Shown here: positions 1-11,881 of the stretch, one piece after another | Layout of the letters: each line of letters starts with the position of its first letter | How positions within the stretch are numbered: position 1 is the first letter of the stretch | Notes under the pieces: model-generated | Seen by the model: the letters and a program-made list of their open reading frames with translations, nothing else | Databases searched by the model: none | What the model was told of the DNA's origin: nothing | Source: Promethearchaeota archaeon | GTDB taxonomy: Archaea; Asgardarchaeota; Thorarchaeia; Thorarchaeales; Thorarchaeaceae | Direction of reading: 5' to 3' | Length of the DNA: 11,881 nucleotides | NCBI GenBank assembly: GCA_027031765.1 | Contig: JALVPN010000145.1 | Location: 1 to 11,881 of the forward strand | Made by a program: the position numbers and the translations under genes

Positions 1-67
1 CACCCTCACCCCCGTGTTTCTCGTGCAACCCGGCCCGGGCCTCGCCCAGCAACGCCATCCAGTCCAC
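1..67 (-). CDS. 5' end of a hypothetical protein that runs off the left edge (MDWMALLGEARAGLHEKHGGEG...)
   Basis: On the minus strand, AGGAGG (plus 75-80) lies 7 nt before a GTG at 67, and the frame stays open to the window edge. Only 22 codons are visible, so no product can be assigned. Confidence 0.45.
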   Translation of the reverse strand, partial: MDWMALLGEARAGLHEKHGGEG

Positions 68-227
68 CGTCCGGCCTCCTGGGTGTGTATTACTGGCGTA
101 GTCCCCAGCCCACTACTCCCATGATGCACCGCTATTCCCCGCATCATACTCGGTTTTATTACGTGCTCCAGTGGTAATGTAGGTGAGTTGTACCACAGAA
201 ACTGAGTCCACATGGAGATGCTGACAG

Positions 228-368
228 ATGGAGAACGGAGCCCAGCCGACCTCGACCCTCTGGAAGAACGCAGAAGTGCTGCATGTCCTCTATGGCCTGC
301 TCGACAGTGACCGCGAGCCGACCGACGCTGATGCCCGGCGCCTCAGGGCGCTCTATGCTGGCTCGTAG
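228..368 (+). CDS. possible 46-aa small protein (MENGAQPTSTLWKNAEVLHVLYGLLDSDREPTDADARRLRALYAGS)
   Basis: ATG 228 to TAG 368, with GGAGA about 10 nt upstream and an amphipathic-helix-like composition. It is below the ORF-track cutoff and no family is recognised. Confidence 0.3.
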   Translation: MENGAQPTSTLWKNAEVLHVLYGLLDSDREPTDADARRLRALYAGS

Positions 369-431
369 GCAGCTGGATGCGAGGACCGTTGACCTGACCA
401 ATCACGCTCCTCATTTCCCGGAATGAGGTCA

Positions 432-635
432 CTACGCTGTCTCCGCATGCATCTCCCGGCAAGGCAGAGACACACAGTGGGGACGGTACCTCCCCGGCGC
501 CGTCCCCACACCACGGTCCTGGTGGACTCCGCCCACCCAGTAGGGCCCACTCTTTGAGATGCGCGTGTTGTAGACCCAGGCCTTCCTTTTCCACTCCGAC
601 TCTGCCGGGCGTCTGGTCTGTGGTGCCCACTCCAT
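432..635 (-). CDS. possible 67-aa small hypothetical protein (MEWAPQTRR...MHAETA)
   Basis: Open frame from ATG 635 to TAG 432 in an otherwise unassigned gap. Codon usage is plausible, but there is no clear RBS and no recognised motif. Confidence 0.2.
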   Translation of the reverse strand: MEWAPQTRRPAESEWKRKAWVYNTRISKSGPYWVGGVHQDRGVGTAPGRYRPHCVSLPCREMHAETA

Positions 636-782
636 GCTACATGCCCCGATTGCCCCCGTCACTACCGGCATCTGCCTGCACATCGCGCCTGATGTCCCCG
701 GTGTGACTCAGAGGGTGCGTCAGTCTTATCTGCGTCCGTCACCTGGGCGGGCATGACCCCTTGTGGGAGTTGAGCGCACAGT

Positions 783-1661
783 ATGCGTAGGGTCGTCATT
801 GACTATGACAACAGACCATACCGACCGGGAGAGGTGGTCTCCGGGAAGGTCAGTGTGACTACGGACAAGGAGTTCCAGTGCAACAGGGCCCTCATCTCAT
901 TGGTGGGCGTGGTGAGGACATCAGTGGTGCGTGGTGGTGGGCGTACGAGACGTGTGTACCGGGACTCCCTGACTCTGGTCGATGAGACCTGTGTCCTGAG
1001 CGAGGAGCGGTCCATCCCAGAGGGTGAGACCTCCTTCCCCTTTGAGTTCCGGCTGCCCACATATATCCCCGACACATTCAGTGCGTACCGTGCTGAGGTG
1101 TCCTATGGTCTTTCTGCGAAGGTCGAGGTGTCATGGGCCCTCGACCCCAAGGCTGAGTCAGAGGTACATGTGTCGGTGCCCCTGAGCGAACGCAGGGGGG
1201 AGCGTCAGACGCCACGTATTGACACCGGGGACGGTGACGAGGTGCTCGTAGACATGCCCTCCGACACGCTGGTGCCAGGTAGTTCCGTCCGTCTACGCCT
1301 CTCCGTCCACGGCTCGCCCCGGATCCGTGGTGTGCGCACCGAGCTGTTCCAGGTGGTGCACCGGGTGGCCCGTGGGCGCGATGATGAGTCATGGGTCGAG
1401 CTTGACAGACAGACGGTGGAGGCGGAGGAGCTAGCTGCTGGCCTCTGGACCGACGTGACACTCGGCCCCGTCCCTGAGCGGCTCGTAGAGATCAAGACAC
1501 CCCTGCTGACCGTCAGGTACATCCTCAAGGTCACAGCAGACATACCGTTCCGGTTCGACAAGTCGGTGGAGATACCACTGGCCGTTGGACTTGCACCATC
1601 CGACGACCTCCTCGAGGCCGACGTGTCCTCCGTGGGCTGGGAGTTCCGCATATCTGGCTGA
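783..1661 (+). CDS. arrestin-domain protein (alpha-arrestin/SpoOM-like; Arrestin_N + Arrestin_C), 292 aa
   Basis: The N-domain matches the alpha-arrestin pattern: 'YRPGEVVSGKVSV', 'LISLVGVVRT', 'GETSFPFEFRLP...PDTF...VSYGLSAKVEVSWALD'. The C-domain ends with 'TPLLTVRYILKVTADIPFRFDKSVEIPLAVG'. The composition is all-beta. Confidence 0.85.
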   Translation: MRRVVIDYDNRPYRPGEVVSGKVSVTTDKEFQCNRALISLVGVVRTSVVRGGGRTRRVYRDSLTLVDETCVLSEERSIPEGETSFPFEFRLPTYIPDTFSAYRAEVSYGLSAKVEVSWALDPKAESEVHVSVPLSERRGERQTPRIDTGDGDEVLVDMPSDTLVPGSSVRLRLSVHGSPRIRGVRTELFQVVHRVARGRDDESWVELDRQTVEAEELAAGLWTDVTLGPVPERLVEIKTPLLTVRYILKVTADIPFRFDKSVEIPLAVGLAPSDDLLEADVSSVGWEFRISG

Positions 1662-1893
1662 CGGCCCTCGACAGTAGGCCGCTGCGTGCATCTGGCCAGT
1701 CTTGCTGTCGGGAGCGGTCCAGTCCGGACCCGGTGCAGTAATGGGGCTCACGGTACTGTCCAGACTGTGTGCTGACCGGTGTTTTATTTTTGTGTCCGTC
1801 ATGCTACTGCTTGGGGAGCAGAATGTGTGGTCTTGCACGGAGGTGCGATTCCTTTATGTGTCTGTGTCCACTCCACGGTGTTGGCGTGATATC

Positions 1894-2379
1894 TTGAAGA
1901 AGAGAGTCGGAGTCGTCCTGGGACGTGGTGGCCACACTGCGCAGACCTTCGCGCTGGTAGACCTCTTGGGCCGGTCTTTCGAGTATATCTACATGGTCGG
2001 AGTCCTCGACCCACTGACAAGGGCGAAGATCCGCATCCCGGGACGCGTGTTGCCGGTACTCCCACCACGGCTCCAGCCCACCGACTCCCGGCTCCTGTCC
2101 GTACTGCGGACGCTCGTGACCCTGCTCCTGGCCTTTCTCTACCTGGCGTTCTGGAGGCCCGGCATCGTTGTGAGCTGTGGCACCGGCCTCACGGTCCCCG
2201 TGTTCTATGCCGCACGGGCCCTAGGTGTCAGGACCGTCTACATTGAGAGCATGTCGCGGGTGGAGACCCTATCCATGACCGGGCGGCTCCTCCTTGGTAA
2301 GACTGACCTCTTCATTGTCCAGTGGCCCCAGCTCGCGGAGAGGACACCCGGGGCGGTCTATGGGGGGCAACTGCTATGA
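1894..2379 (+). CDS. alg14: Alg14-like (PssD/CpsF-type) acceptor-binding subunit of UDP-GlcNAc transferase, 161 aa
   Basis: Motifs 'VVLGRGGHT', 'RPGIVVSCGTGLTVPV', 'TVYIESMSRVETLSMTGRLL' and 'FIVQWPQL'. The start is re-placed at TTG 1894 (MKKRVGVVLG), which fits the family N-terminus. The stop TGA overlaps the next ATG (ATGA, 2376-2379). Confidence 0.9.
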   Translation: MKKRVGVVLGRGGHTAQTFALVDLLGRSFEYIYMVGVLDPLTRAKIRIPGRVLPVLPPRLQPTDSRLLSVLRTLVTLLLAFLYLAFWRPGIVVSCGTGLTVPVFYAARALGVRTVYIESMSRVETLSMTGRLLLGKTDLFIVQWPQLAERTPGAVYGGQLL

Positions 2380-2834
2380 TATTCGTCACTGTAGGCACTT
2401 CCCACTATGACCCGCTCATCCGTGAGATGGACGGTCTGGTCGCATCCGGCAGGGTGCCCCGGCCAGTTGTGGCACAGATTGGTCGCGGTCAGTACGTCCC
2501 CCAACACATGCGCTACTACCGTTTCCTGAAGAGCCTCCAGCCGGCGTATGACGCTGCTGACCTGGTCGTGAGCACTGGTGGTGCTGGCACGACCATAGAG
2601 TGTGTCCGTCGTGGCCTCCGCCTGGTGGTCGTGGAGAACGAGTCACTGATGGAGCGTCACCAGGCCCAGCTGATTGGGGAGATGGCAAGACGCGGTCACC
2701 TCCTATGGTGCCGGCGGCTCGATGACCTTGCAGACTGCGTCCACGAGGCCCTCAGTCGTGAGTTCCCACCATTCGTGTCAGACCCGCCAGATGGGATACG
2801 CACTGTGGTGCTCGCCCTCCTCCATGACGACTGA
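2376..2834 (+). CDS. alg13: Alg13-like (Glyco_tran_28_C; PssE/CpsG-type) UDP-GlcNAc-binding subunit, 152 aa
   Basis: Motifs 'MIFVTVGTSHYDPLI', 'QIGRG', 'ADLVVSTGGAGT' and 'VVVENESLMERHQ'. ATG 2376 overlaps the alg14 stop by 4 nt. Confidence 0.9.
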   Translation: MIFVTVGTSHYDPLIREMDGLVASGRVPRPVVAQIGRGQYVPQHMRYYRFLKSLQPAYDAADLVVSTGGAGTTIECVRRGLRLVVVENESLMERHQAQLIGEMARRGHLLWCRRLDDLADCVHEALSREFPPFVSDPPDGIRTVVLALLHDD

Positions 2835-3059
2835 TAGGCACACCCAAGTCCCGTGCGCATGACCTGTCCAGGACTGTCACTGCCCCGGCCATCACTACGT
2901 CATTATGCCAGACGGTATGCCCCCGGTATGTCCATTTGGCGCCAAACGCGGCAGCCCCTCGGGGGCCTCCATGCGGTGCTGTGGTCATCCCAATACCCCG
3001 GTGGGTATGCGGATATCACGTAGGGCTGTATGGTGCTATTCTCCGGGTTTGATGCATCC

Positions 3060-3104
3060 TTTATATTCGTCGTCTCCCACCCGTTCCATAGGAAACTGAG
3101 GTGA
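3060..3104 (+). promoter_or_regulatory. TATA-like box (TTTATATT 3060-3067) and ribosome-binding site (GAGGTGA 3098-3104) of the 3112 gene
   Basis: A rare AT-rich octamer in GC-rich DNA about 45-50 nt upstream of ATG 3112, plus an archaeal SD-type sequence 7 nt before the ATG. Confidence 0.6.
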
Positions 3105-3111
3105 GTAAAAA

Positions 3112-3864
3112 ATGAGCAAGAAGAGAAGCAGGAAGTCAAAGAGGCTCATCCGGACTCGTGGGATGGCGCTTGCCGTCAAGCTCTTCCGCTGCAACGGCCT
3201 GAGCATGAGCCCTACCAAGCTGGCGGCCACGTTCCGCAACATGCCCTATTCACCCAGCAAGGACGAGATCACCGCCGGGTTCACAGAGGTCAAGGCGAGT
3301 GGCAAGGTGGTGCGTGGTGAGTTCGTGGCAGGGTTCAGGGTACCAGTGCTGTCGTACGACGCCGAGGGCAACCTGACACCGGTGCACTATGTGAGTGTTG
3401 ACCGCGGCACAGTGCTGGTCAAGCTCGACCGTGGCACCGTAGAGGTCAGGGGTTCAGAGCGCATATCCCGGAAGTTCAGGAGGATCCTTGAGGACACGAC
3501 CGGTGCCAAGCTGTCGCCTCTCAACCTGAACGGTGGGACAAAGAAGCTGTACACACAGGCTGCGGAGATTGACGCTGTCCTGCTCACGGGGGTCGAGAAG
3601 GGGAACCTCACGCAGGCAGAGTTCAGGGGCCTTGGGATACAGAACGAAGAGGAGATTGGCCTCTACACGCGACGTTACAAGGGGTCGATCAGTCGTTTCC
3701 GTGGCACATTCCCCTATCCATCCGGGGCGTTCTTGACCACCACTGTGAATGCAGATGCGGGCTCGCTAATCGTGTACCGCAGTGGTGACGGCATACTGGA
3801 GAAGGACCTGGAGTGGATAGTCGACCTGATGGAAGAGGCGGCACTGGCCGAGGAGAACGCATAG
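3112..3864 (+). CDS. hypothetical alpha/beta protein with a highly basic N-terminal tail, 250 aa
   Basis: Strong RBS, a TATA-like box and coding-like codon usage. It begins MSKKRSRKSKRLIRTR. No family recognised. Confidence 0.8.
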   Translation: MSKKRSRKSKRLIRTRGMALAVKLFRCNGLSMSPTKLAATFRNMPYSPSKDEITAGFTEVKASGKVVRGEFVAGFRVPVLSYDAEGNLTPVHYVSVDRGTVLVKLDRGTVEVRGSERISRKFRRILEDTTGAKLSPLNLNGGTKKLYTQAAEIDAVLLTGVEKGNLTQAEFRGLGIQNEEEIGLYTRRYKGSISRFRGTFPYPSGAFLTTTVNADAGSLIVYRSGDGILEKDLEWIVDLMEEAALAEENA

Positions 3865-4006
3865 TTGGCCGTGGGACGGGTCGCTGCGGCCCGCCCGGCC
3901 CCCATGTTTTGTCTGTCATGCCCTGTGCAGGGCAGGGGTGCCACTAACGCTGCTCTCTGATGGGCATACCTGTACCGCCGTGGACGGGGTTCACATCTGG
4001 TACACA

Positions 4007-4303
4007 TCACATCCAGGCGCTCGGGTCACGCTTGAGGCCTATCACTGTCCTCGTGTTCTCTACGTACCACCGTGTCCTGTCCCTGAACAGTGGCCAGAAC
4101 TCGAAGAAGACCGCGGGTTCCTCAGCCTCAAGCAGCAGGAACCCGTTCCACTCAGTGCCCCACGCATGGCGGTAGTCACCTATGAGGTGCAGCTCTTCGG
4201 GCCAGCCCTCGTCGAGGAACTGTTTCCAGAATGCACGGGCCCTGTCCGACTCCTCAGTGGTCATCTGCCTGAACTTGTAGAACACAACGAAGGCGTATGT
4301 CAT
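4007..4303 (-). CDS. small dimeric alpha/beta-barrel-like (ferredoxin-like fold; DUF3303/GYD-like) protein, 98 aa
   Basis: The start is re-placed at ATG 4303 (MTYAFVVFYKF), because the longer start overlaps the divergent nuclease gene. The pattern strand-helix-'LIGDYRHAWG'-'GFLLLEAEE'-helix-'TRTVIG' fits beta-alpha-beta-beta-alpha-beta. The fold call is an inference. Confidence 0.65.
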   Translation of the reverse strand: MTYAFVVFYKFRQMTTEESDRARAFWKQFLDEGWPEELHLIGDYRHAWGTEWNGFLLLEAEEPAVFFEFWPLFRDRTRWYVENTRTVIGLKRDPSAWM

Positions 4304-4343
4304 CGGGTGCACGCGTCCTGGGAATGGAGTGGGTGGCGGTGGA

Positions 4344-4354
4344 TTAAAAAGATT
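4344..4354 (+). promoter_or_regulatory. TATA-like element TTAAAAAGATT in the 73-bp divergent gap between the 4303(-) and 4377(+) starts
   Basis: An AT-rich island 33 nt upstream of ATG 4377. Read on the minus strand (TTTTTAA) it is about 40 nt upstream of ATG 4303. Confidence 0.55.
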
Positions 4355-4376
4355 GGTCATGGGTGGTGGACAGAGG

Positions 4377-5108
4377 ATGAGCGAGGACGAGAGCGCGGTC
4401 GTGAGCCGTGATTTCCAACACGGACGCGTGGCATACCGGTTCCTGTGGAACACTGCGCACCATCGCAGTCTGGGCTACGAGTCGGGAGACCTTGCTGCCC
4501 TGTGGGCGCACTTGGAGGCGGTGCGGCGGGGCAGTATTCCAACGGTACCGTTCCAGGACCCGTCCTACCTGCGTGCGTCAGGCCTCAGGCTGACACGGAT
4601 GTCGCGGTCGGCGGCTGTGGGTTTCAGGGAGCGTCTGTTCAGGAGCGGCATGGTGCGTGTGTACAGTGACGACCCCCTCGTGAATGCCCTCCGTCAGTTC
4701 CACAGGGCCAGGAACAGCACAGCCCGCCCGCTAGACCACGGCGTGCTACGAGACTTCATCATGCACGACCCGGCCAGCATTGCGCTGGAGGTGCCGGTCT
4801 GGTCCGACGAGTACCACCTCTCCGGGCACATTGACCTTGTGAGGTTTGAGGACGGTCTCGTCCAGGTCTGTGACTACAAGCCCGGCCCTCTTGAGACGAC
4901 CAGGCACCGGTTCCTTGAGGCCCTCCCGCAGGTCGCAGCCTATGGTGAGATGATGGCCTATCACCTTGCATCCACGTTCAGGCAGGCACTGGATGCCCCG
5001 TTACTCCCCCATGTCACATGTGCGGTCTTTGACACCCACTCGTGCTGGCGGTTTGGCGCGGAGCTGTTCGTCACACTTGTTGCAGCACGTCGTGTCGAGG
5101 GCCTCTAG
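4377..5108 (+). CDS. PD-(D/E)XK (RecB/Cas4-like fold) nuclease family protein, 243 aa
   Basis: Ordered catalytic motifs 'ALEVPVW' (E), 'LSGHIDLV' (D), 'VCDYKP' (DxK) and 'PQVAAYG' (QxxxY). There is no 4-Cys Fe-S set. The start is placed at ATG 4377 after GAGG. Confidence 0.85.
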   Translation: MSEDESAVVSRDFQHGRVAYRFLWNTAHHRSLGYESGDLAALWAHLEAVRRGSIPTVPFQDPSYLRASGLRLTRMSRSAAVGFRERLFRSGMVRVYSDDPLVNALRQFHRARNSTARPLDHGVLRDFIMHDPASIALEVPVWSDEYHLSGHIDLVRFEDGLVQVCDYKPGPLETTRHRFLEALPQVAAYGEMMAYHLASTFRQALDAPLLPHVTCAVFDTHSCWRFGAELFVTLVAARRVEGL

Positions 5109-5968
5109 CCCCGCCCGTTCTCCACAACACGCATGCGGATTTCTTCCTCAACGCTCGGTGCATGGGCCGCCATGCCGCTCCACCTGATTGAGATTGTGGG
5201 GCGTTCTGACACGAGCCCCTCACGTATGCGGGAGAAGTACTGTTCTGTGAGGACACCAAAGTAGCCAATCGCAGGGTCGACGGGCACCCACCCTTTTCCC
5301 GCCAGGTATGCTTCAGACCACGCGTGTGACTCGGGGTTGCTGCCGTCCCGGTATATGTGGCCGACCACGCGTCTGGCGGGAATCTTGGCTGCGCGCAGCA
5401 GGGCTATGAACAGGTCTGCGTGTTCGTCACAGTCACCCTCCTTCTCCCTCACGGCACGGGACGCACCAATCCTCTCGTCGAGGTGGGTCTTCAGTCTGAG
5501 GTGCTTGCGGACCGTGTCGAACGCGAGCCGTGCGTACCGCTCGTCGCTGTCTGCCCTGCTGGATATCTGTTCGGCCATCTCCTGTACGAGTGGGTCGTCC
5601 ACCTCCCAGTACTTGTCTGCCTTGCAGTATGTCCCCCGGTGCCTTGACATCTCTTCCGTGGGCGTTTCCAGCCGTTCCATCATCCAGTCGCGTGTGGTGG
5701 TGTCTATCCGGAGGGTCACTGTGGGTGAAAAACTCTCGCCGGGCTGCAACTCTGGTACCTTGATGATGGCCACCATGTTACGTTCAGCCTTCTCGACAAC
5801 GCGTGCTGGTGGGAAGACATCGATTGCCCGTACGAACTGGTTGTCCATGTCGGTGAGCAGGTGCCAGGTCATCCGTGCGTCCTGTAGTCTTCCACCACCG
5901 TTGTTGTGTACGTCTGCCTGCATCTCTATGAGCAGTCTCAGTATGGTGACCTCCGGTAGCCATGTCAC
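5105..5968 (-). CDS. soluble transglutaminase-like (Transglut_core) cysteine protease/transferase
   Basis: Intact triad: 'GDCDEHADLFIALLRAAKIPARRVVG' (Cys), 'HAWSE' (His), 'GWVPVDP' (Asp). The start is uncertain (ATG 5995, GTG 5968, or ATA 5944/CTG 5941 after GGAGGT). The stop overlaps the convergent nuclease stop in CTAG (5105-5108). Confidence 0.9.
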   Translation of the reverse strand: MTWLPEVTILRLLIEMQADVHNNGGGRLQDARMTWHLLTDMDNQFVRAIDVFPPARVVEKAERNMVAIIKVPELQPGESFSPTVTLRIDTTTRDWMMERLETPTEEMSRHRGTYCKADKYWEVDDPLVQEMAEQISSRADSDERYARLAFDTVRKHLRLKTHLDERIGASRAVREKEGDCDEHADLFIALLRAAKIPARRVVGHIYRDGSNPESHAWSEAYLAGKGWVPVDPAIGYFGVLTEQYFSRIREGLVSERPTISIRWSGMAAHAPSVEEEIRMRVVENGRG

Positions 5969-6279
5969 TGATGTCCTTTGTGTGCAGGGGCCCATGGACT
6001 TGGGATGGAGTGGTTACCCCGTGTGGCACGGTCATTGCACCGCCGGTAGTGTCCTCTTGCACCTGTTGACGCTGGTCACACTGGTGTGCCTCTGGGCACT
6101 CCCGGACCGGACAGCACAGACCCGTTGTGGGAGGCCTGGTCTGCCGTCCCACTCACAGCTAGCCTTCCCGGATACATTTATGTGTTGCCAAGGGTTCACT
6201 CTCCGATGGCTGCCACAATCACGCTGGGGCCAGGCCGCCCGAGTCAACGGTCGGGCGTGTGTACGGGGGTCCTTGCCGC

Positions 6280-7719
6280 ATGAGCGATGAGAGAAAGGTC
6301 GTTGAGGAACTCCTTGCAGAGATGGGTGTTGACAGTGAGAAGATGCGCGAGCTGGTCGAGTCCGGTCAGCTCCCGGCTGACATCCTGAAGGTAGAGTCTG
6401 CTGACCAGGTGCGTCGACGCCTTGAGATCGAGAGGAGCTCAGAGAGGCTGAGGGAAGCACTGAAACAGCTGCAGGACAAGCTCGACGACCTGGACACAGT
6501 GGTGGACCGTGTTGAACGCGATGTGGTGCCTGTCATCCTCTCATTCCTCGTGGGCCTGAAGGGCAACCTCGTTTCCCTCCGGAGTACCATCATAGGTCGG
6601 AGCAAGAGGCTTGCCAAGACCAACCTGCAGGCCACATTTGTGGACACCGAGGTCAAGCGCGTGGTCGAGGAGGAGTTCGCAAGTATTGAGGAGACCCTCA
6701 CCACCGGCATGTCGGCACCAATCCTTGACAAGGTGCGGGAGCTCACAGATGTCCTGAAGGAGTCCATGAAGGCCCTGGCAGCCCTCCTGACAGAGGTGAA
6801 TGCCCGTGTTGACGACTATGCCCAGCGGACACGTACTGAGTTCGACTTTCTGACACGGGAGTTGAGCAGCAAACCGCGGACGGAGCTGACACCCGAAGTC
6901 CGGGAGACGATTGCTGCCCTTGAACGTCGCGTCGAGGAGCTGGAGAGCGACCTGACAGCTGCAAGGCAGGCGATTGAGAACCGGGACAGCGAGATTGAGA
7001 GGCTGCGTGCGGAGGTCAGCGTGCTCCGCGAGAAGAACGAGGCGCTGGAAGACACGGTCGCAACCCTTCGTGCTGCTCCGACCGCCGATGTCGCACAGCT
7101 CGCCGAGCTGCGTCAGACGATCAAGACGGTCGAGACGTCCCGCGACCTGCTCGCCCGGAAGTTCGAGCAGGAACGGAAGCGGGCGGAGGAGGCGGAGGAG
7201 AAGGCCCGCGGACTGAGTGCGGTGATTGCGGAGAAGGACATCGAGATTGGCGACCTCCAGACACGTGTCAAACGACTTGAGGAGGAGCTTGAGACGATGC
7301 GTGCCCGTCTGGCCGAAGTGGACGACCTGCGTGCCCGTCTGCGCTCCTACGAGTCCGGTGACAGGGCCCGCGAGCTGGAGCTCGCAAAGGCGGAGCTCGA
7401 CCGTGTACAGGGGAGTCTCGAACGTCTTACTGCTGACCACCAGGAGGTGGTGCGCAGGCTCAGGGCTGCTGAGGAGAAGATCAGTGCCTACCACCGTCTG
7501 ATGCAGGCCGCAGAGAAGACAAAGGCGTACCTGATGGTGGAGGACAACAAGTCAATGACCATCCGTGAGATTGCCCGGGCCCTCGGCGTCTCTCCTGCTA
7601 CTGTCACGAAGTGGGCCGAGGACTTTGAACGACTGGGCATAGCACGGGTTGTCGACGGCACAACACTCGTGCCAATGGGGCCATCAGAGGGGGACGACTC
7701 CACCTCAACGGGCGACTGA
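6280..7719 (+). CDS. long coiled-coil protein with a C-terminal winged helix-turn-helix, 479 aa
   Basis: About 400 aa of E/R/L/A-rich heptad-like sequence followed by 'MTIREIARALGVSPATVTKWAEDFERLGIARVVDG' (HTH plus wing, starting near 7549). There are no Walker motifs. The start is placed at ATG 6280. Confidence 0.85.
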   Translation: MSDERKVVEELLAEMGVDSEKMRELVESGQLPADILKVESADQVRRRLEIERSSERLREALKQLQDKLDDLDTVVDRVERDVVPVILSFLVGLKGNLVSLRSTIIGRSKRLAKTNLQATFVDTEVKRVVEEEFASIEETLTTGMSAPILDKVRELTDVLKESMKALAALLTEVNARVDDYAQRTRTEFDFLTRELSSKPRTELTPEVRETIAALERRVEELESDLTAARQAIENRDSEIERLRAEVSVLREKNEALEDTVATLRAAPTADVAQLAELRQTIKTVETSRDLLARKFEQERKRAEEAEEKARGLSAVIAEKDIEIGDLQTRVKRLEEELETMRARLAEVDDLRARLRSYESGDRARELELAKAELDRVQGSLERLTADHQEVVRRLRAAEEKISAYHRLMQAAEKTKAYLMVEDNKSMTIREIARALGVSPATVTKWAEDFERLGIARVVDGTTLVPMGPSEGDDSTSTGD

Positions 7720-8160
7720 TGGATCGCGTCTGGACACCCTCTGGAACAGTGCCATGAGGTCGAGCAGTCTATCAATGGCCAGTGCCTTTGCATACACATT
7801 GACGACGTTGTCGCGCCCCTCGTTGTCACCAATCAGATAGCTCCTGACTGCGGGCTGGAGCACCGCCTGTACGTACTCCTGTCTGAGCGAGCGCAGGTCA
7901 GCAACGAGTGACTGGTCGAGTTCACCGCGTTCGAGGGCGCTCTTCACGGAGGCCGCGAACTTGCAGCACGGGTCTTCGGGCTCACCGGTGCACTCATCGA
8001 ACATATCTGATGCTAGGGCAAGGCACTCCTTTAGGGCACTGGGGTAGTCGGTCATGGCCAGCAGGGTCACCTCTGAGCACCTCTTGAGGAACACCTCCTC
8101 GACCGAGGCAATCTCTCCAAGGAGACGACCAAGCTTCTTCATGCTCTCGCGCTCAGACAT
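7705..8160 (-). CDS. hypothetical all-alpha protein, 151 aa
   Basis: The start is re-placed at ATG 8160 (MSERESMKKLGRLL), downstream of a TTAAAA box. The upstream part of the track ORF is low-complexity G/T/H/R noise. It overlaps the coiled-coil gene end by 15 nt. Confidence 0.7.
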   Translation of the reverse strand: MSERESMKKLGRLLGEIASVEEVFLKRCSEVTLLAMTDYPSALKECLALASDMFDECTGEPEDPCCKFAASVKSALERGELDQSLVADLRSLRQEYVQAVLQPAVRSYLIGDNEGRDNVVNVYAKALAIDRLLDLMALFQRVSRRDPSVAR

Positions 8161-8188
8161 ATGAAAAGACCGCACTAACGGACTCACG

Positions 8189-8199
8189 AATCCTTTTAA
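8189..8199 (-). promoter_or_regulatory. TATA-like element TTAAAAGGATT upstream of the 8160(-) gene
   Basis: The reverse complement of AATCCTTTTAA (8189-8199) starts 39 nt before the ATG. It is 10/11 identical to the element at 4344-4354. Confidence 0.5.
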
Positions 8200-8459
8200 C
8201 ACTGTCTGGCCCCATGTCCTTTTCCGCCCACGTGTCCTGTCCCCACACGGGCCCTGCACTTGCATGTGTAGGTGGTGGAGTGATTGCACGCCCTGACCAG
8301 CCCGCTGTCCACGGGCAGTCCCACTCCTGCCTGTGGTGTTGTGCCCTGCATGTGTGCCACCACGTCCCAAGCCCCATCTATGACCATGGGCCACGAGCGG
8401 CCCAGTGCCGTGTCACAGTTGTACCGCAAAGCGGATAAGAGCCCGCACGGAGCTGCACC

Positions 8460-9512
8460 ATGATGAGAGAAGCAGTCCTTTATTCCCAGATCAAGGACGG
8501 TGTGCGCTGCGACCTGTGTGCACGGCGGTGTGTGATCCGCGAGGGCGAGACCGGGTTCTGTAGGGTGCGCACGCTCAGGGACGGCAAGCTCTACAGCACG
8601 GTATATGGTCTCGTTGATGGCATGGCACCAGACCCCATAGAGAAGAAGCCACTGTTCCACTTTGCACCCGGCTCTCACACGTTCTCAATCAGCACGTCGT
8701 CATGTAACTTCAGGTGCCAGTTCTGCCTCAACTACCACTCATCACAGAGGGAGACCCCCGTTGGTCAGCAACTGACGCCTGAAGAGATTGTTGCCCTTGC
8801 CAAGAGGTACGGCTGTCATGGCCTGAGCTATACGTACACGGAGCCGACCATATTCATGGAACTCGCACATGACACTGCCGAGATTGCCCACAACAACGGC
8901 ATGTACAACACGTTCGTGACCAACGGCTACATGACCGAGCAGGCTGTGGACTACATCGCACCTGTGCTCGACGCGGCCACCGTGGACTTCAAGGGCAGCG
9001 GCAACCCCGACTTCTACAGACGGTACATGGAGGTGCCCCGGGTCGACCCCATCTTCAGGTCGCTCAAGCGTATGAAGGGACGTGGCATATTCATTGAGAT
9101 CACCAACCTCATCATCCCGCAGGTCGGAGACCTCGTCGACGACACCAGGCGCCTCGCAAGGTGGATTGTCGATGAGCTCGGCCCACGCACTCCAGTCCAC
9201 ATAACCGCCTTCAGTCCCATGTACAAGATGACCCACCTGCCAAGGACTCCTGCTGTGACCCTTGAGAAACACATCCGGGCCTGCAAGGACGAGGGCCTTG
9301 TGTTCGTCTACTCGGGCAACATCGCAGGACACGACTATGAGAACACCTACTGCCCGGAGTGCGGCTTCAGGGCCGTGGAGCGCTGGTCCGTCTTCCTCAA
9401 GAAGAACCGGCTCGCTGAGGACGGCACGTGTCCCAAGTGCGGCGCCGACCTCAACATTGCTGGTGTCAAGTACATGGGGAGTGGCGGCTCACGGCTGCCA
9501 TTCTTCTTCTAG
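8460..9512 (+). CDS. amrS: AmmeMemoRadiSam-system radical SAM enzyme (PflX/PFL-activase-like family), 350 aa
   Basis: N-terminal 'CDLCARRC...GFCRVR', 'DPIEKKPLFHFAPG', radical SAM 'CNFRCQFC', 'YTYTEPT', 'FVTNGY', and a C-terminal zinc ribbon 'NTYCPECG...CPKCG'. Confidence 0.93.
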   Translation: MMREAVLYSQIKDGVRCDLCARRCVIREGETGFCRVRTLRDGKLYSTVYGLVDGMAPDPIEKKPLFHFAPGSHTFSISTSSCNFRCQFCLNYHSSQRETPVGQQLTPEEIVALAKRYGCHGLSYTYTEPTIFMELAHDTAEIAHNNGMYNTFVTNGYMTEQAVDYIAPVLDAATVDFKGSGNPDFYRRYMEVPRVDPIFRSLKRMKGRGIFIEITNLIIPQVGDLVDDTRRLARWIVDELGPRTPVHITAFSPMYKMTHLPRTPAVTLEKHIRACKDEGLVFVYSGNIAGHDYENTYCPECGFRAVERWSVFLKKNRLAEDGTCPKCGADLNIAGVKYMGSGGSRLPFFF

Positions 9513-9528
9513 CCGAGGGCGCGGGACC

Positions 9529-10413
9529 TTGAACATCATCGGTATCAGGTGGACCGCACAGGACGACACCAGCTTCAAGGTCGGTATGTCCGGGTGGCAG
9601 GACGGACGGACAGTGACAGTGCCACTTGCCCCGGGCATGCATGTGTCGTGGCGCATCAGCGGGCCCCGCCTGTGTGTGGGCTACAGGGGTGTTGACGGCA
9701 CCATGCACCCATGCCCAGAGGGACGACGCGCCCTCCTCTCCAGTCCCCAGTGCGGCCCATGTATGGCCTCAGACATCTCGTCACCCTGTGCCAAGTGCGA
9801 CGGCAGCAGGTGCAGCGCCCAGCCCGCGCGTCGTGCATCGTGTATCCAGAGAGAGCATGTGCTCTACGTCGCAGTCTTCGGCCACGGCCTCGTCAAGGTC
9901 GGTGTGTCATCATCAAGACGGGTGCGCACGCGGTGGGCCGAACAGGGTGCCGACTATGCTGCGGTACTGGCAACATATGACAGCGGCATGGCTGCACGAC
10001 GTGTGGAGGCAAGGCTGGGCCGTAGCCCGGGTCTCTCCACCAGGGTCACCACCAAGTACAAGGCGTCACACCTGCACCCGCTCCCCCCGGACAGGGCCAT
10101 GCAGACGGTCGCCGCCCTGCGCCCTTTGCTGAGAGCACATGGCCTCACGCTGCCAGACCTGCTTGAGGACATGTCACAGCACTACGGTCTTCGACAACTG
10201 GGGCCACATGTCTCATGCGAGCTCCTCCGCGTCGACCGGGACCACAGGTCCATCGATGTCGTCGGGGAGGTGGTCGGTGTGAAGGGCCCGATACTCGTCA
10301 TCCGGCGTGGGGCCCTGCTGTATGGCCTGAGCGTGCCATCTGTGGCCGGCCTCCACCTGATAGAGGACACGCGCATCATACCTGAGACCCAGACACAGCT
10401 GACCGACTTCTGA
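9529..10413 (+). CDS. DUF2797-type protein: Cys-rich N-region, GIY-YIG-like core and C-terminal PIP-box-like motif, 294 aa
   Basis: 'HVLYVAVFGHGLVKVGVS...RVRTRWAEQGA' (9856-9951) and 'GEVVGVKG' match the DUF2797 pattern. Eight Cys lie upstream of the core, and the protein ends QTQLTDF*. The start is re-placed at TTG 9529, 16 nt after the amrS stop. Confidence 0.8.
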   Translation: MNIIGIRWTAQDDTSFKVGMSGWQDGRTVTVPLAPGMHVSWRISGPRLCVGYRGVDGTMHPCPEGRRALLSSPQCGPCMASDISSPCAKCDGSRCSAQPARRASCIQREHVLYVAVFGHGLVKVGVSSSRRVRTRWAEQGADYAAVLATYDSGMAARRVEARLGRSPGLSTRVTTKYKASHLHPLPPDRAMQTVAALRPLLRAHGLTLPDLLEDMSQHYGLRQLGPHVSCELLRVDRDHRSIDVVGEVVGVKGPILVIRRGALLYGLSVPSVAGLHLIEDTRIIPETQTQLTDF

Positions 10414-10639
10414 CGGCCTCAGCCTGTCACTGTCAGCTGTTCCACCACTCCACTCCTCCAGTCTACTTGCGCGTCCCAGGTCGCGTGGTCGGCGGCGGAC
10501 ACTGTGCACAGGGCCAGGACCCGCACACGTATTCAGGCCACATCTATTGCCGGCCTGGCCGCGTCCCCGTGACACAGCATCCCTACTGCTCCCAGCTATC
10601 TTCATATTGGATGGAGTACAGTGCACTGTCCGGGTGCGA

Positions 10640-11506
10640 ATGGCCGGCACACTTGACGAGAAAAAGGTCCGGTATATCTCCCTCGTACGAAAGGAGGGTG
10701 GCGAGCCAGTACTGAGTATACCGTTCAGGGAGATGAGCGTAGACCCGGACCTCGTGGCAAGCTTTGTCCTTGCAATCATCATCTTTGAGAACCGGCAGCT
10801 GAAGACGTTCACGAAGGAGGGCTATGTCGTCGTCATCGAGGAAGGACAGTACGTTGTCGGCCTGCTGATTGTCGACCGGGTGGACGACGACACGGAGTAC
10901 AGGCGGGCCCTTGTCGATGTGATCCAGAGGTTCGAGGAGCGCTACGAGGGCCACTTCCTGAGCTGGCGCGGTGACATCCGACCGTTCCGTGAGTTTGCAC
11001 TCGACATCCTCAGCGTCTTCCCGTACTGTCGGTTCGACTGGGATATGATACCAAGACTAAGGGTCGGTGGCGTGGAGGGGGCAGAGTCGCGGCCCATTCC
11101 GTGGAGCGTGGGAACGACCGACGAGAAGTTGCACCGGGTGCTTGGCTTTGTCAATGGCAAGCGTACGGTGGCGGAGATCTGTGATGCGTCGGGCCTTCCT
11201 GATAGAGAGGTGGCTGCCATCTTCTCAATGCTCCTCAAGTACGGGTGGGTCACGATGACGCGGCGGCTGGACGAAGACACGGTGCTCATAAAGATGGCGG
11301 ACCCACCAATGCGGCTCCTCGGGGCCTACGGCGAGCAGCTCACCAAGCTCGTCGACCTCTGCGATGGTACCAGGACATTGCGGGAGGTATGCGGACTGTT
11401 GCCATATGACATGGCCGCAGTTATGACGGTGGCCCGCAACCTCGTCAATGCTGGTGTCCTCGCACACTATGAACCGGGTGAGCAGGGAAGACACGGAGGG
11501 CAGTGA
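10640..11506 (+). CDS. longin-domain + 2x winged-HTH protein (NPRL2/NPRL3-like architecture), 288 aa
   Basis: N-terminal longin pattern up to about 11020: 'RYISLVRKEGGEPVL', 'DPDLVASFVLAIIIF', three strands, 'YRRALVDVIQRFEERY...WRGDIRPFREF'. Two related wHTH repeats follow at 11132-11257 ('VNGKRTVAEICDASG...MLLKYGWV') and 11345-11470 ('CDGTRTLREVC...NLVNAGVL'). The start is placed at ATG 10640. Confidence 0.75.
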   Translation: MAGTLDEKKVRYISLVRKEGGEPVLSIPFREMSVDPDLVASFVLAIIIFENRQLKTFTKEGYVVVIEEGQYVVGLLIVDRVDDDTEYRRALVDVIQRFEERYEGHFLSWRGDIRPFREFALDILSVFPYCRFDWDMIPRLRVGGVEGAESRPIPWSVGTTDEKLHRVLGFVNGKRTVAEICDASGLPDREVAAIFSMLLKYGWVTMTRRLDEDTVLIKMADPPMRLLGAYGEQLTKLVDLCDGTRTLREVCGLLPYDMAAVMTVARNLVNAGVLAHYEPGEQGRHGGQ

Positions 11507-11509
11507 ACC

Positions 11510-11881
11510 ATGACAGTCGACGTCAGCAAGATCCGCTACGTTGCCCTGATACGCCTTGAGGGCGGCGAGTCGGTACTCAATGTACCATACGCAAAGATGA
11601 CAGTTGACCCCGACCTGATTGCAGGCTTTGTCACTGCGGTCATCATCTTTGCCAAGACACCAATCCGTACAATCCGGAAGGCTGCATACGACATCTTGAT
11701 TGAGGTGGGGGACACCGTGCTGGTGCTCCTCGTGGTGGACCCTGTCCCTGACGAGACACCGTACCGAGAGAGGCTGAAACGCATCCTGACAAAGGTCGAG
11801 TCGGAGTTCGGGGCGAGGCTCAGGGACTTTGAGGGCGACATCCGCCGTTTCAGGGAGTTTGCACTGTCTGTCCTTGTGGAG
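11510..11881 (+). CDS. second longin-domain protein, paralogue of the upstream gene (partial, runs off the right edge)
   Basis: Not in the ORF track. GGAGGG (11495-11500) precedes ATG 11510, 3 nt after the upstream stop. Translation: MTVDVSKIRYVALIRLEGGESVLNVPYAKMTVDPDLIAGFVTAVIIF...EGDIRRFREFALSVLVE. It aligns without gaps to the upstream longin domain. Confidence 0.85.
   Translation, partial: MTVDVSKIRYVALIRLEGGESVLNVPYAKMTVDPDLIAGFVTAVIIFAKTPIRTIRKAAYDILIEVGDTVLVLLVVDPVPDETPYRERLKRILTKVESEFGARLRDFEGDIRRFREFALSVLVE

Follow-up and report, generated by a model that had tools for sequence, protein, structure and literature searches.

An 11,881-nucleotide contig from a Promethearchaeota archaeon of the family Thorarchaeaceae (assembly GCA_027031765.1, contig JALVPN010000145.1, positions 1 to 11,881; called here the window) ends with two adjacent genes, A and B. 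The two encoded proteins are paralogues and very probably share the architecture of NPRL2 and NPRL3, eukaryotic proteins of nutrient signalling, namely a longin domain followed by two winged helices. The window corresponds to contig C145 of a 2.95-Mb genome that is 95% complete and whose source habitat is hydrothermal vent sediment. In eukaryotes, the longin regulators of small GTPases (GATOR1, FLCN-FNIP, C9orf72-SMCR8, and Mon1-Ccz1) are all paralogous heterodimers. The reading developed below, in which A and B are NPRL2-like paralogues that pair with each other and regulate a small GTPase, has in our view about an even chance of being correct.

Gene A (10640..11506, plus strand) encodes a protein of 288 residues, from the ATG at 10640 to the TGA at 11504-11506; an orthologue alignment favours this start codon over an upstream TTG at 10547. 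Gene B starts on the same strand with the ATG at 11510, 3 nucleotides after the stop codon of gene A, and stays open to the end of the window. Its first 124 codons (11510..11881) already cover a complete longin domain. A GGAGGG Shine-Dalgarno-like site for gene B (11495..11500, plus strand) is located within the 3' end of gene A. Residues 1-124 of B align with A at 56 identities in 121 positions (46%) without any gap (BLASTP, E 7e-37), and the motifs EGGE, VDPDL, and GDIRxFREFAL are common to both proteins. An earlier inspection of the letters alone (the sequence-only reading) had already described a second gene 3 nucleotides past the first stop with its own GGAGGG ribosome-binding site, the same three motifs, and, from a hand count, about 55 identities in 122 ungapped positions (about 45%). 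All of these observations are borne out.

The structure of A was modelled with AlphaFold2 from 43 A and B sequences, yielding a predicted local distance difference test score (pLDDT) of 86.8 and a predicted template modelling score (pTM) of 0.80. DSSP analysis of the model and VIA-align comparisons delimit a longin domain at residues 10-126 (10667..11017, plus strand), with the order strand-strand-helix-strand-strand-strand-helix-helix. In VIA-align searches, this domain superposes on the longin domain of Sec22b with a Z score of 15.2 and a root mean square deviation of 2.5 A over 120 residues, the next longin matches being VAMP7, Fuzzy, Ykt6, and sigma-adaptins. A roadblock fold was also considered for this domain and was rejected, because strands and helices follow one another as in a longin and because roadblock proteins give lower scores. 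A short linker, modelled with low confidence, connects the longin domain to two winged helices. The first one spans residues 159-218 (11114..11293, plus strand) and is supported by the models and by weak Pfam matches to TrmB and wHTH-PRTase_assc. The second one spans residues 224-276 (11309..11467, plus strand), contains a conserved DG motif, and was located by comparing the family profile with the PDB and by weak Pfam matches to HTH_47 and DUF742.

When the full-length model of A is compared with the PDB using Foldseek, every one of the top 13 matches is a chain from a GATOR1 or yeast SEA-complex entry, be it NPRL2, NPRL3, or one of the corresponding yeast subunits (320-368 alignment columns, E 1.6e-7 to 2.3e-5), and single-domain longins rank below them. 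The C-terminal half modelled alone (pLDDT 84.3) gives the same picture, its top 11 Foldseek matches being again all GATOR1/SEA-complex chains. An exhaustive VIA-align comparison of this half with 48,161 representative chains, which is independent of Foldseek, places human NPRL2 first (Z 10.6, 141 residues, residues 173-349 of the chain) and a yeast SEA-complex chain second (Z 9.7). These models argue strongly for an NPRL2/NPRL3-like architecture of A and B. At the sequence level, all Pfam winged-helix matches to A and B, which involve HTH_47, DUF742, and TrmB, stay below threshold; for DUF742, the E values are 6.5e-4 with A and 0.14 with B. Compared with PDB sequences, the family profile has residues 170-236 of human NPRL2 as its best match, at a weak E value of 0.089. 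A longin-only profile returns eL8 at chance level (E 0.04), then MON1 and AP-4 sigma at about 0.4, and gives no alignment with NPRL2.

Gene B is intact. The first 130 nucleotides of another contig of the same genome, C114, are identical to the last 130 nucleotides of the window at 129 positions, and the single mismatch, 4 nucleotides from the end, is synonymous in a Val codon. Reading through this overlap, the remainder of gene B occupies positions 131-586 of C114 (locus L005), with the stop codon at 584-586, giving a protein of 275 residues with the same architecture as A. In addition, a separately assembled 4034-nucleotide contig of the likely source metagenome starts at position 11707 and extends beyond the end of the window, and other Thorarchaeota assemblies show the same gene order without interruption. 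From these three lines of evidence, B is neither truncated nor a pseudogene. Extension to the right thus disposes of the concern that the second gene might break down just past the window, and supplies the A-like winged helices that were then out of sight.

The proteins themselves are not new. Liu et al. 2020/2021 (bioRxiv 10.1101/2020.10.19.343400), in the part of the text available, describe a family combining a longin domain with an NPRL2-type C-terminal domain in most Thor metagenome-assembled genomes and in few other Asgard genomes. Since the distribution and the architecture that we observe fit this description, as far as that part of the paper goes, A and B almost certainly belong to this Asgard NPRL2-like family, with which they share the two-part domain organization and the Thor-centred distribution. 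Hence, the suggestion that the locus represents an uncharacterized system does not hold. The same part of the text contains no tandem paralogue pair, no coupling of such a pair, no syntenic single-copy state in a sister family, and no roadblock neighbour. Because the family is already in the literature, the value of the present locus lies in the conserved pair and its context and not in the discovery of the proteins. In our searches, the family is found in 85 of 87 Thorarchaeia genomes; outside this class, only weaker matches (E 1e-11 to 1e-37) occur, in some other Asgard families. All database relatives of A and B are labelled as hypothetical proteins and come from Thorarchaeota, and the B orthologues, with lengths of 272-286 residues, make up more than 270 database clusters. 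In the source genome, larger proteins contain a dozen further copies of the domain that are more distantly related.

Among the matches listed, the Thorarchaeia genomes having both copies carry an A-type copy followed by a B-type copy, adjacent and on the same strand, and A and B orthologues carry consecutive locus tags at NCBI. In the class-wide search, A-type copies are 48-65% identical to A, and B-type copies are 39-48% identical to A. For 18 loci with exact gene ends, the distance from the stop codon of A to the start codon of B was measured; it is -1 to 3 nucleotides in 11 of them and 59-154 nucleotides in the 7 others, and a GGAGG sequence is found 6-12 nucleotides upstream of the B start in all 18. 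These observations support a conserved and usually tightly coupled bicistron, as predicted from gene arrangement. The worry that the pair might be absent from relatives is thereby lifted, the A-B order being retained in nearly all of the 85 Thorarchaeia genomes that have the family.

Within this pair, the two copies have clearly separated. In the tree, A orthologues and B orthologues form clades with supports of 100/99 and 100/97, respectively, the B clade being sister to a few sporadic extra Thorarchaeia paralogues. Of 272 comparable alignment columns, 70 are conserved as the same residue in both clades, and in 35 others each clade is at least 90% conserved on a different residue; 26 of these 35 columns are within the longin domain. 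Because such clade-specific differences are fixed, both genes appear to be under selection for distinct roles. Judged from these sequences, A and B are non-redundant and anciently diverged paralogues.

How did the two copies arise? The one genome of a sister family belonging to the same order has a single full-length copy at L036:1483-2307, flanked by a DUF2797 gene on one side and by a roadblock gene in convergent orientation on the other, that is, at the place occupied by A-B in Thorarchaeaceae. A duplication in place is therefore plausible. In the best tree, all Thorarchaeaceae copies fall in one clade and the sister-family copy stands apart (support 86/81, or 95/85 without four long branches). 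Approximately unbiased (AU) tests retain trees that join the sister-family copy to A (p 0.112) and trees that join it to B and its relatives (p 0.11). These sequence data favour an in-place duplication at the root of Thorarchaeaceae; an older duplication followed by loss of one copy, the alternative left by the AU tests, may also account for them. Under the tree, the duplication is old, predating the radiation of Thorarchaeaceae, and lineage-specific. As the A/B duplication is specific to Thorarchaeia, we infer that the A/B split is parallel to the eukaryotic NPRL2/NPRL3 split and not its ancestor. The claim of a local duplication resembling the step behind the eukaryotic complexes thus remains plausible in its first part, with the single copy at the same locus, and becomes a parallel instead of an antecedent in its second part.

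Links between the longin/winged-helix module and small GTPases are found in three other genomic contexts, which are independent of one another. In the source genome, a protein of which 522 residues are visible is encoded on contig C207:1-3058 (L023; frame 2-1567, plus strand), where it is cut by the contig start. Its N-terminal part is a GTPase domain of the Arf/Roc/Ras type (PF00025, E 1.2e-15), and its last ~260 residues are homologous to residues 25-274 of A (E 4e-24), including a near-identical VDLCDGTR motif. Full-length fusions of this kind, about 645 residues long and annotated as Arf-like, are conserved as a family in Thorarchaeota; 245 clusters reach E<=1e-20, and the 120 clusters listed are 62-69% identical over the whole query. 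These fusions have the GTPase domain in the same chain, whereas A and B carry none; consequently, A and B would need a separate GTPase. The second context, on contig C135:1345-5109 of the same genome (L028; 2373-171, minus strand), is a same-strand cluster comprising a 431-residue distant homologue with only weak similarity to A, a gene of 109 codons, and a 171-residue Ras-family GTPase (PF00071, E 1.3e-47). The third is an operon of five genes with overlapping stops and starts in Candidatus Baldrarchaeum yapensis (JAEOSH010000015.1, L057; 446-4213, plus strand). It encodes, in order, a 351-residue protein with a weak TFIIE-like match, a 276-residue Arf-like GTPase with an N-terminal extension of ~110 residues, a protein of 180 residues, a 303-residue longin/winged-helix homologue, and a protein of 157 residues. 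With hhalign, the 180- and 157-residue neighbours show no similarity to the longin profile, and a scan for relatives of the operon returned that genome only. Finally, the source genome has 24 matches to the Arf model and 3 to the Gtr1_RagA model, 2 of these being above the cut-off; both models also match ordinary prokaryote controls, and none of the matches in the source genome is linked to A-B. With 24 Arf-model matches, candidate partners are plentiful. It is reasonably probable that A and B work with a small GTPase.

The surroundings of the pair are conserved as well. In Thorarchaeaceae, the block is composed of a radical S-adenosylmethionine (SAM) gene, a DUF2797 gene, A, and B, followed on the opposite strand by, in order, a NifB-like radical SAM gene, a roadblock/LC7 gene, a gene of about 340 codons, and a gene for a coiled-coil and winged-helix protein. 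Here, the radical SAM and DUF2797 genes before the pair are at positions 8460-9512 and 9529-10413 of the window. The Cys-rich DUF2797 gene is always upstream of gene A, and it accompanies the single-copy gene of the sister family as well. Downstream of the pair and opposite to it in strand, the second radical SAM gene (L005 583-1545) is NifB-like (TIGR01290, E 6e-72, below the cut-off). The roadblock/LC7 gene (L005, contig C114, 1421-1936, minus strand; PF03259, E 1.7e-9) faces the pair in convergent orientation at every Thorarchaeaceae locus inspected, and it directly adjoins the single-copy gene in the sister family. Its product has 171 residues here vs. 130-135 elsewhere, corresponding to an N-terminal extension of ~45 residues provided that the TTG is the true start. 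The same conserved block includes two coiled-coil proteins that have a winged helix at their end (L005 2970-3641, minus strand, 223 residues; window 6259-7719, plus strand, 486 residues). In another Asgard genome, a similar coiled-coil/TrmB-like gene of 171 codons (L038:831-1343) adjoins a distant homologue.

NPRL2 and NPRL3 are paralogues whose longin domains heterodimerize and whose C-terminal domains form a large contact; their dimer exerts GTPase-activating protein (GAP) activity by means of Arg78, located in a loop of the longin domain (PMC8534245). Longins of the GAP type are recognizable by a GP motif ahead of strand 2 (PMC12290439). On the NPRL2/NPRL3 analogy, pairing of A with B and action on a small GTPase are most likely. 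A conserved unit of two genes is predicted to express A and B together, in many cases with coupled translation. The two proteins would then associate in the NPRL2/NPRL3 manner, longin domain with longin domain and winged-helix half with winged-helix half; we hold the chances that such a heterodimer, which the sequence-only reading supposed to be obligate, forms to be evenly balanced. A complex prediction for the full-length A and B orthologues of one genome, made without controls, scored 0.01 vs. a mark of 0.32 and weighs neither way. As to which GTPase is involved and in which direction it is regulated, we infer that the pair would be a regulator or a docking platform, that is, a GAP, a guanine nucleotide exchange factor (GEF), or a scaffold, for an Arf/Rag/Ras-like GTPase. 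The neighbouring roadblock protein may take part.

Several results weigh against this proposal. Neither A nor B matches the Pfam models NPR2 (PF06218) and NPR3 (PF03666) at E<=1, and searching the whole genome with PF06218, without a positive control, returned nothing; Pfam and NCBIfam have no match for the longin domain of A and B either. With structures that match and curated models that stay blank, the architecture is that of NPRL2/NPRL3 but the curated sequence models do not place A and B in these families. The NPRL2/NPRL3-like assignment of the sequence-only reading therefore stands for the longin domain and the whole architecture, which best match these proteins, and not for the curated Pfam models. 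No IML1/DEPDC5-like gene (PF12257) was found in the 95%-complete genome, in a search without positive control where the controls were blank too. In the A-B neighbourhood, no small GTPase gene is present at any Thorarchaeia locus examined. The question whether a small GTPase or a roadblock gene follows the pair therefore has a divided answer, the roadblock gene being there, on the other strand, and the small GTPase gene not. Moreover, the ten genes flanking other distant homologues include no GTPase. From the three contexts described above and these ten neighbours, the GTPase link is recurrent but not universal. Furthermore, the sister family and other Asgard lineages have only one copy of the homologue, so that the ancestral protein would have worked without a paralogous partner.

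Some longin residues point the same way. Before strand 2, A has GGEP and B has GGES. The loop between longin strands 4 and 5 contains EEG in A and EVG in B, without any conserved Arg. In the column of residue 68 of A, which follows a near-invariant Glu at the end of strand 4, the residue is Glu in A and Val in B; the same column holds Arg in 4 of 6 non-Thor homologues, within ERG in three, including the GTPase-linked Baldrarchaeum protein, and within ERI in one. The strand 4-5 loop is presumed to be the site of the NPRL2 arginine finger Arg78; the longin-only profile returned no residue-level alignment to NPRL2. As this loop, so placed, has no conserved Arg, a GAP mechanism of the NPRL2 type is doubtful for A and B, and a scaffold or exchange-factor role is equally open.

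The single-copy homologues of the sister family and other Asgard lineages also show that a form of the protein lacking its paralogue is viable, which suits the idea that A and B each homodimerize, as the single-copy ancestor presumably did, and serve different GTPases or conditions, their adjacency reflecting only co-regulation. The sporadic extra paralogues (C, D, and E groups) encoded elsewhere in some Thor genomes without an A-type tandem partner fit this idea, as does the fact that A and B still have 70 conserved residues in common, among them most of the longin core. However, co-regulation alone would not call for so strict an A-B order, for co-occurrence in nearly all genomes, or for stop/start coupling at many loci, and order and coupling persist across a family whose A orthologues are only 55-65% identical. 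In addition, the clade-specific fixed differences are concentrated in the longin domain, the expected pairing surface. We regard independent homodimers as possible but rather unlikely.

The winged helices raise two further possibilities. Many prokaryotic winged helices bind DNA, and A and B could be transcription regulators in which the longin domain senses a ligand or a partner; the weak Pfam matches to HTH_47, TrmB, MarR-type, and DUF742 winged helices, together with the MarR regulators found among the weak PDB sequence matches, agree with this. Yet the two winged helices, taken as a unit, resemble the C-terminal half of NPRL2/NPRL3, which binds proteins, much more closely than they resemble any DNA-binding regulator, and the module occurs fused to small GTPases or in gene clusters with them, which makes DNA binding improbable. 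With radical SAM genes on both sides of the pair in Thorarchaeaceae, A and B could instead be peptide-binding accessories of these enzymes, the first winged helix acting as a recognition element for ribosomally synthesized and post-translationally modified peptides (PqqD-like). Indeed, it reaches Z scores of 6-8 with the peptide-recognition domains of MccB, PbtF, TigE, and PqqD-type proteins, and there is a sub-threshold PqqD match at E 0.005. But dozens of ordinary winged helices reach equal Z scores, whereas the NPRL2/NPRL3 match is stronger and covers both winged helices. The radical SAM gene downstream of the pair lies on the opposite strand, and at the sister-family locus the single-copy gene has DUF2797 and roadblock genes beside it, the interval up to the roadblock gene being free of radical SAM genes. 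We consider a peptide-binding role very improbable.

Other genes of the window have eukaryotic affinities. A two-domain arrestin-like protein, a eukaryote-type signature gene, is encoded at 783-1661 (Arrestin_N E 4e-18, Arrestin_C E 5e-12, also Spo0M). At 1702-2834, an Alg14-like gene (PF08660) and an Alg13/glycosyltransferase-28 C-terminal gene (PF04101) are adjacent and represent a split form of the eukaryotic Alg13/Alg14 pair.

Returning to the paired NPRL2-like reading, a more specific form of it can be put forward tentatively. Thorarchaeaceae may have independently evolved a minimal GATOR1-like core, a heterodimer duplicated in place that would switch an Arf/Rag-like GTPase without DEPDC5 and with a roadblock protein. 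If true, this would be a prokaryotic and experimentally tractable replay of how the eukaryotic longin heterodimer regulators arose. The locus offers small, soluble-looking archaeal counterparts (275-288 residues) that already come as a conserved gene pair, together with a single-copy relative from the corresponding locus of a sister lineage and, in the source genome itself, a third paralogue fused to a GTPase. Because these three are available, the choice between heterodimer and homodimer, the GTPase partner, and the choice between GAP and GEF are directly testable.

Among known systems, the bacterial conservons, with their roadblock (CvnB), DUF742 (CvnC), and small GTPase (CvnD) proteins, and MglB-MglA are presumably parallels of A and B. 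The likeness is that of a roadblock/longin-type domain and a winged-helix protein working with a GTPase, and A and B have a trace of DUF742 and a roadblock neighbour. In contrast to conservons, A and B fuse the longin domain and the winged helices in one chain, have a longin and not a roadblock topology, and have no kinase or GTPase gene at the locus. NPRL2/NPRL3 have roughly 360-460 residues in the solved chains vs. 275-288 for A and B, which are devoid of the NPRL2/NPRL3 inserts, of a Pfam NPR2/NPR3 match, of a conserved Arg in the strand 4-5 loop, and, as far as found, of an IML1/DEPDC5-like partner. The duplication that produced A and B is specific to Thorarchaeia, and heterodimer formation and GAP activity are known for NPRL2/NPRL3, whereas A and B are known from genes and models. 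Even so, NPRL2 and NPRL3 (yeast Npr2/Npr3, in GATOR1/SEACIT) share with A and B the same general plan, two paralogues each made of an N-terminal longin domain and two winged helices.

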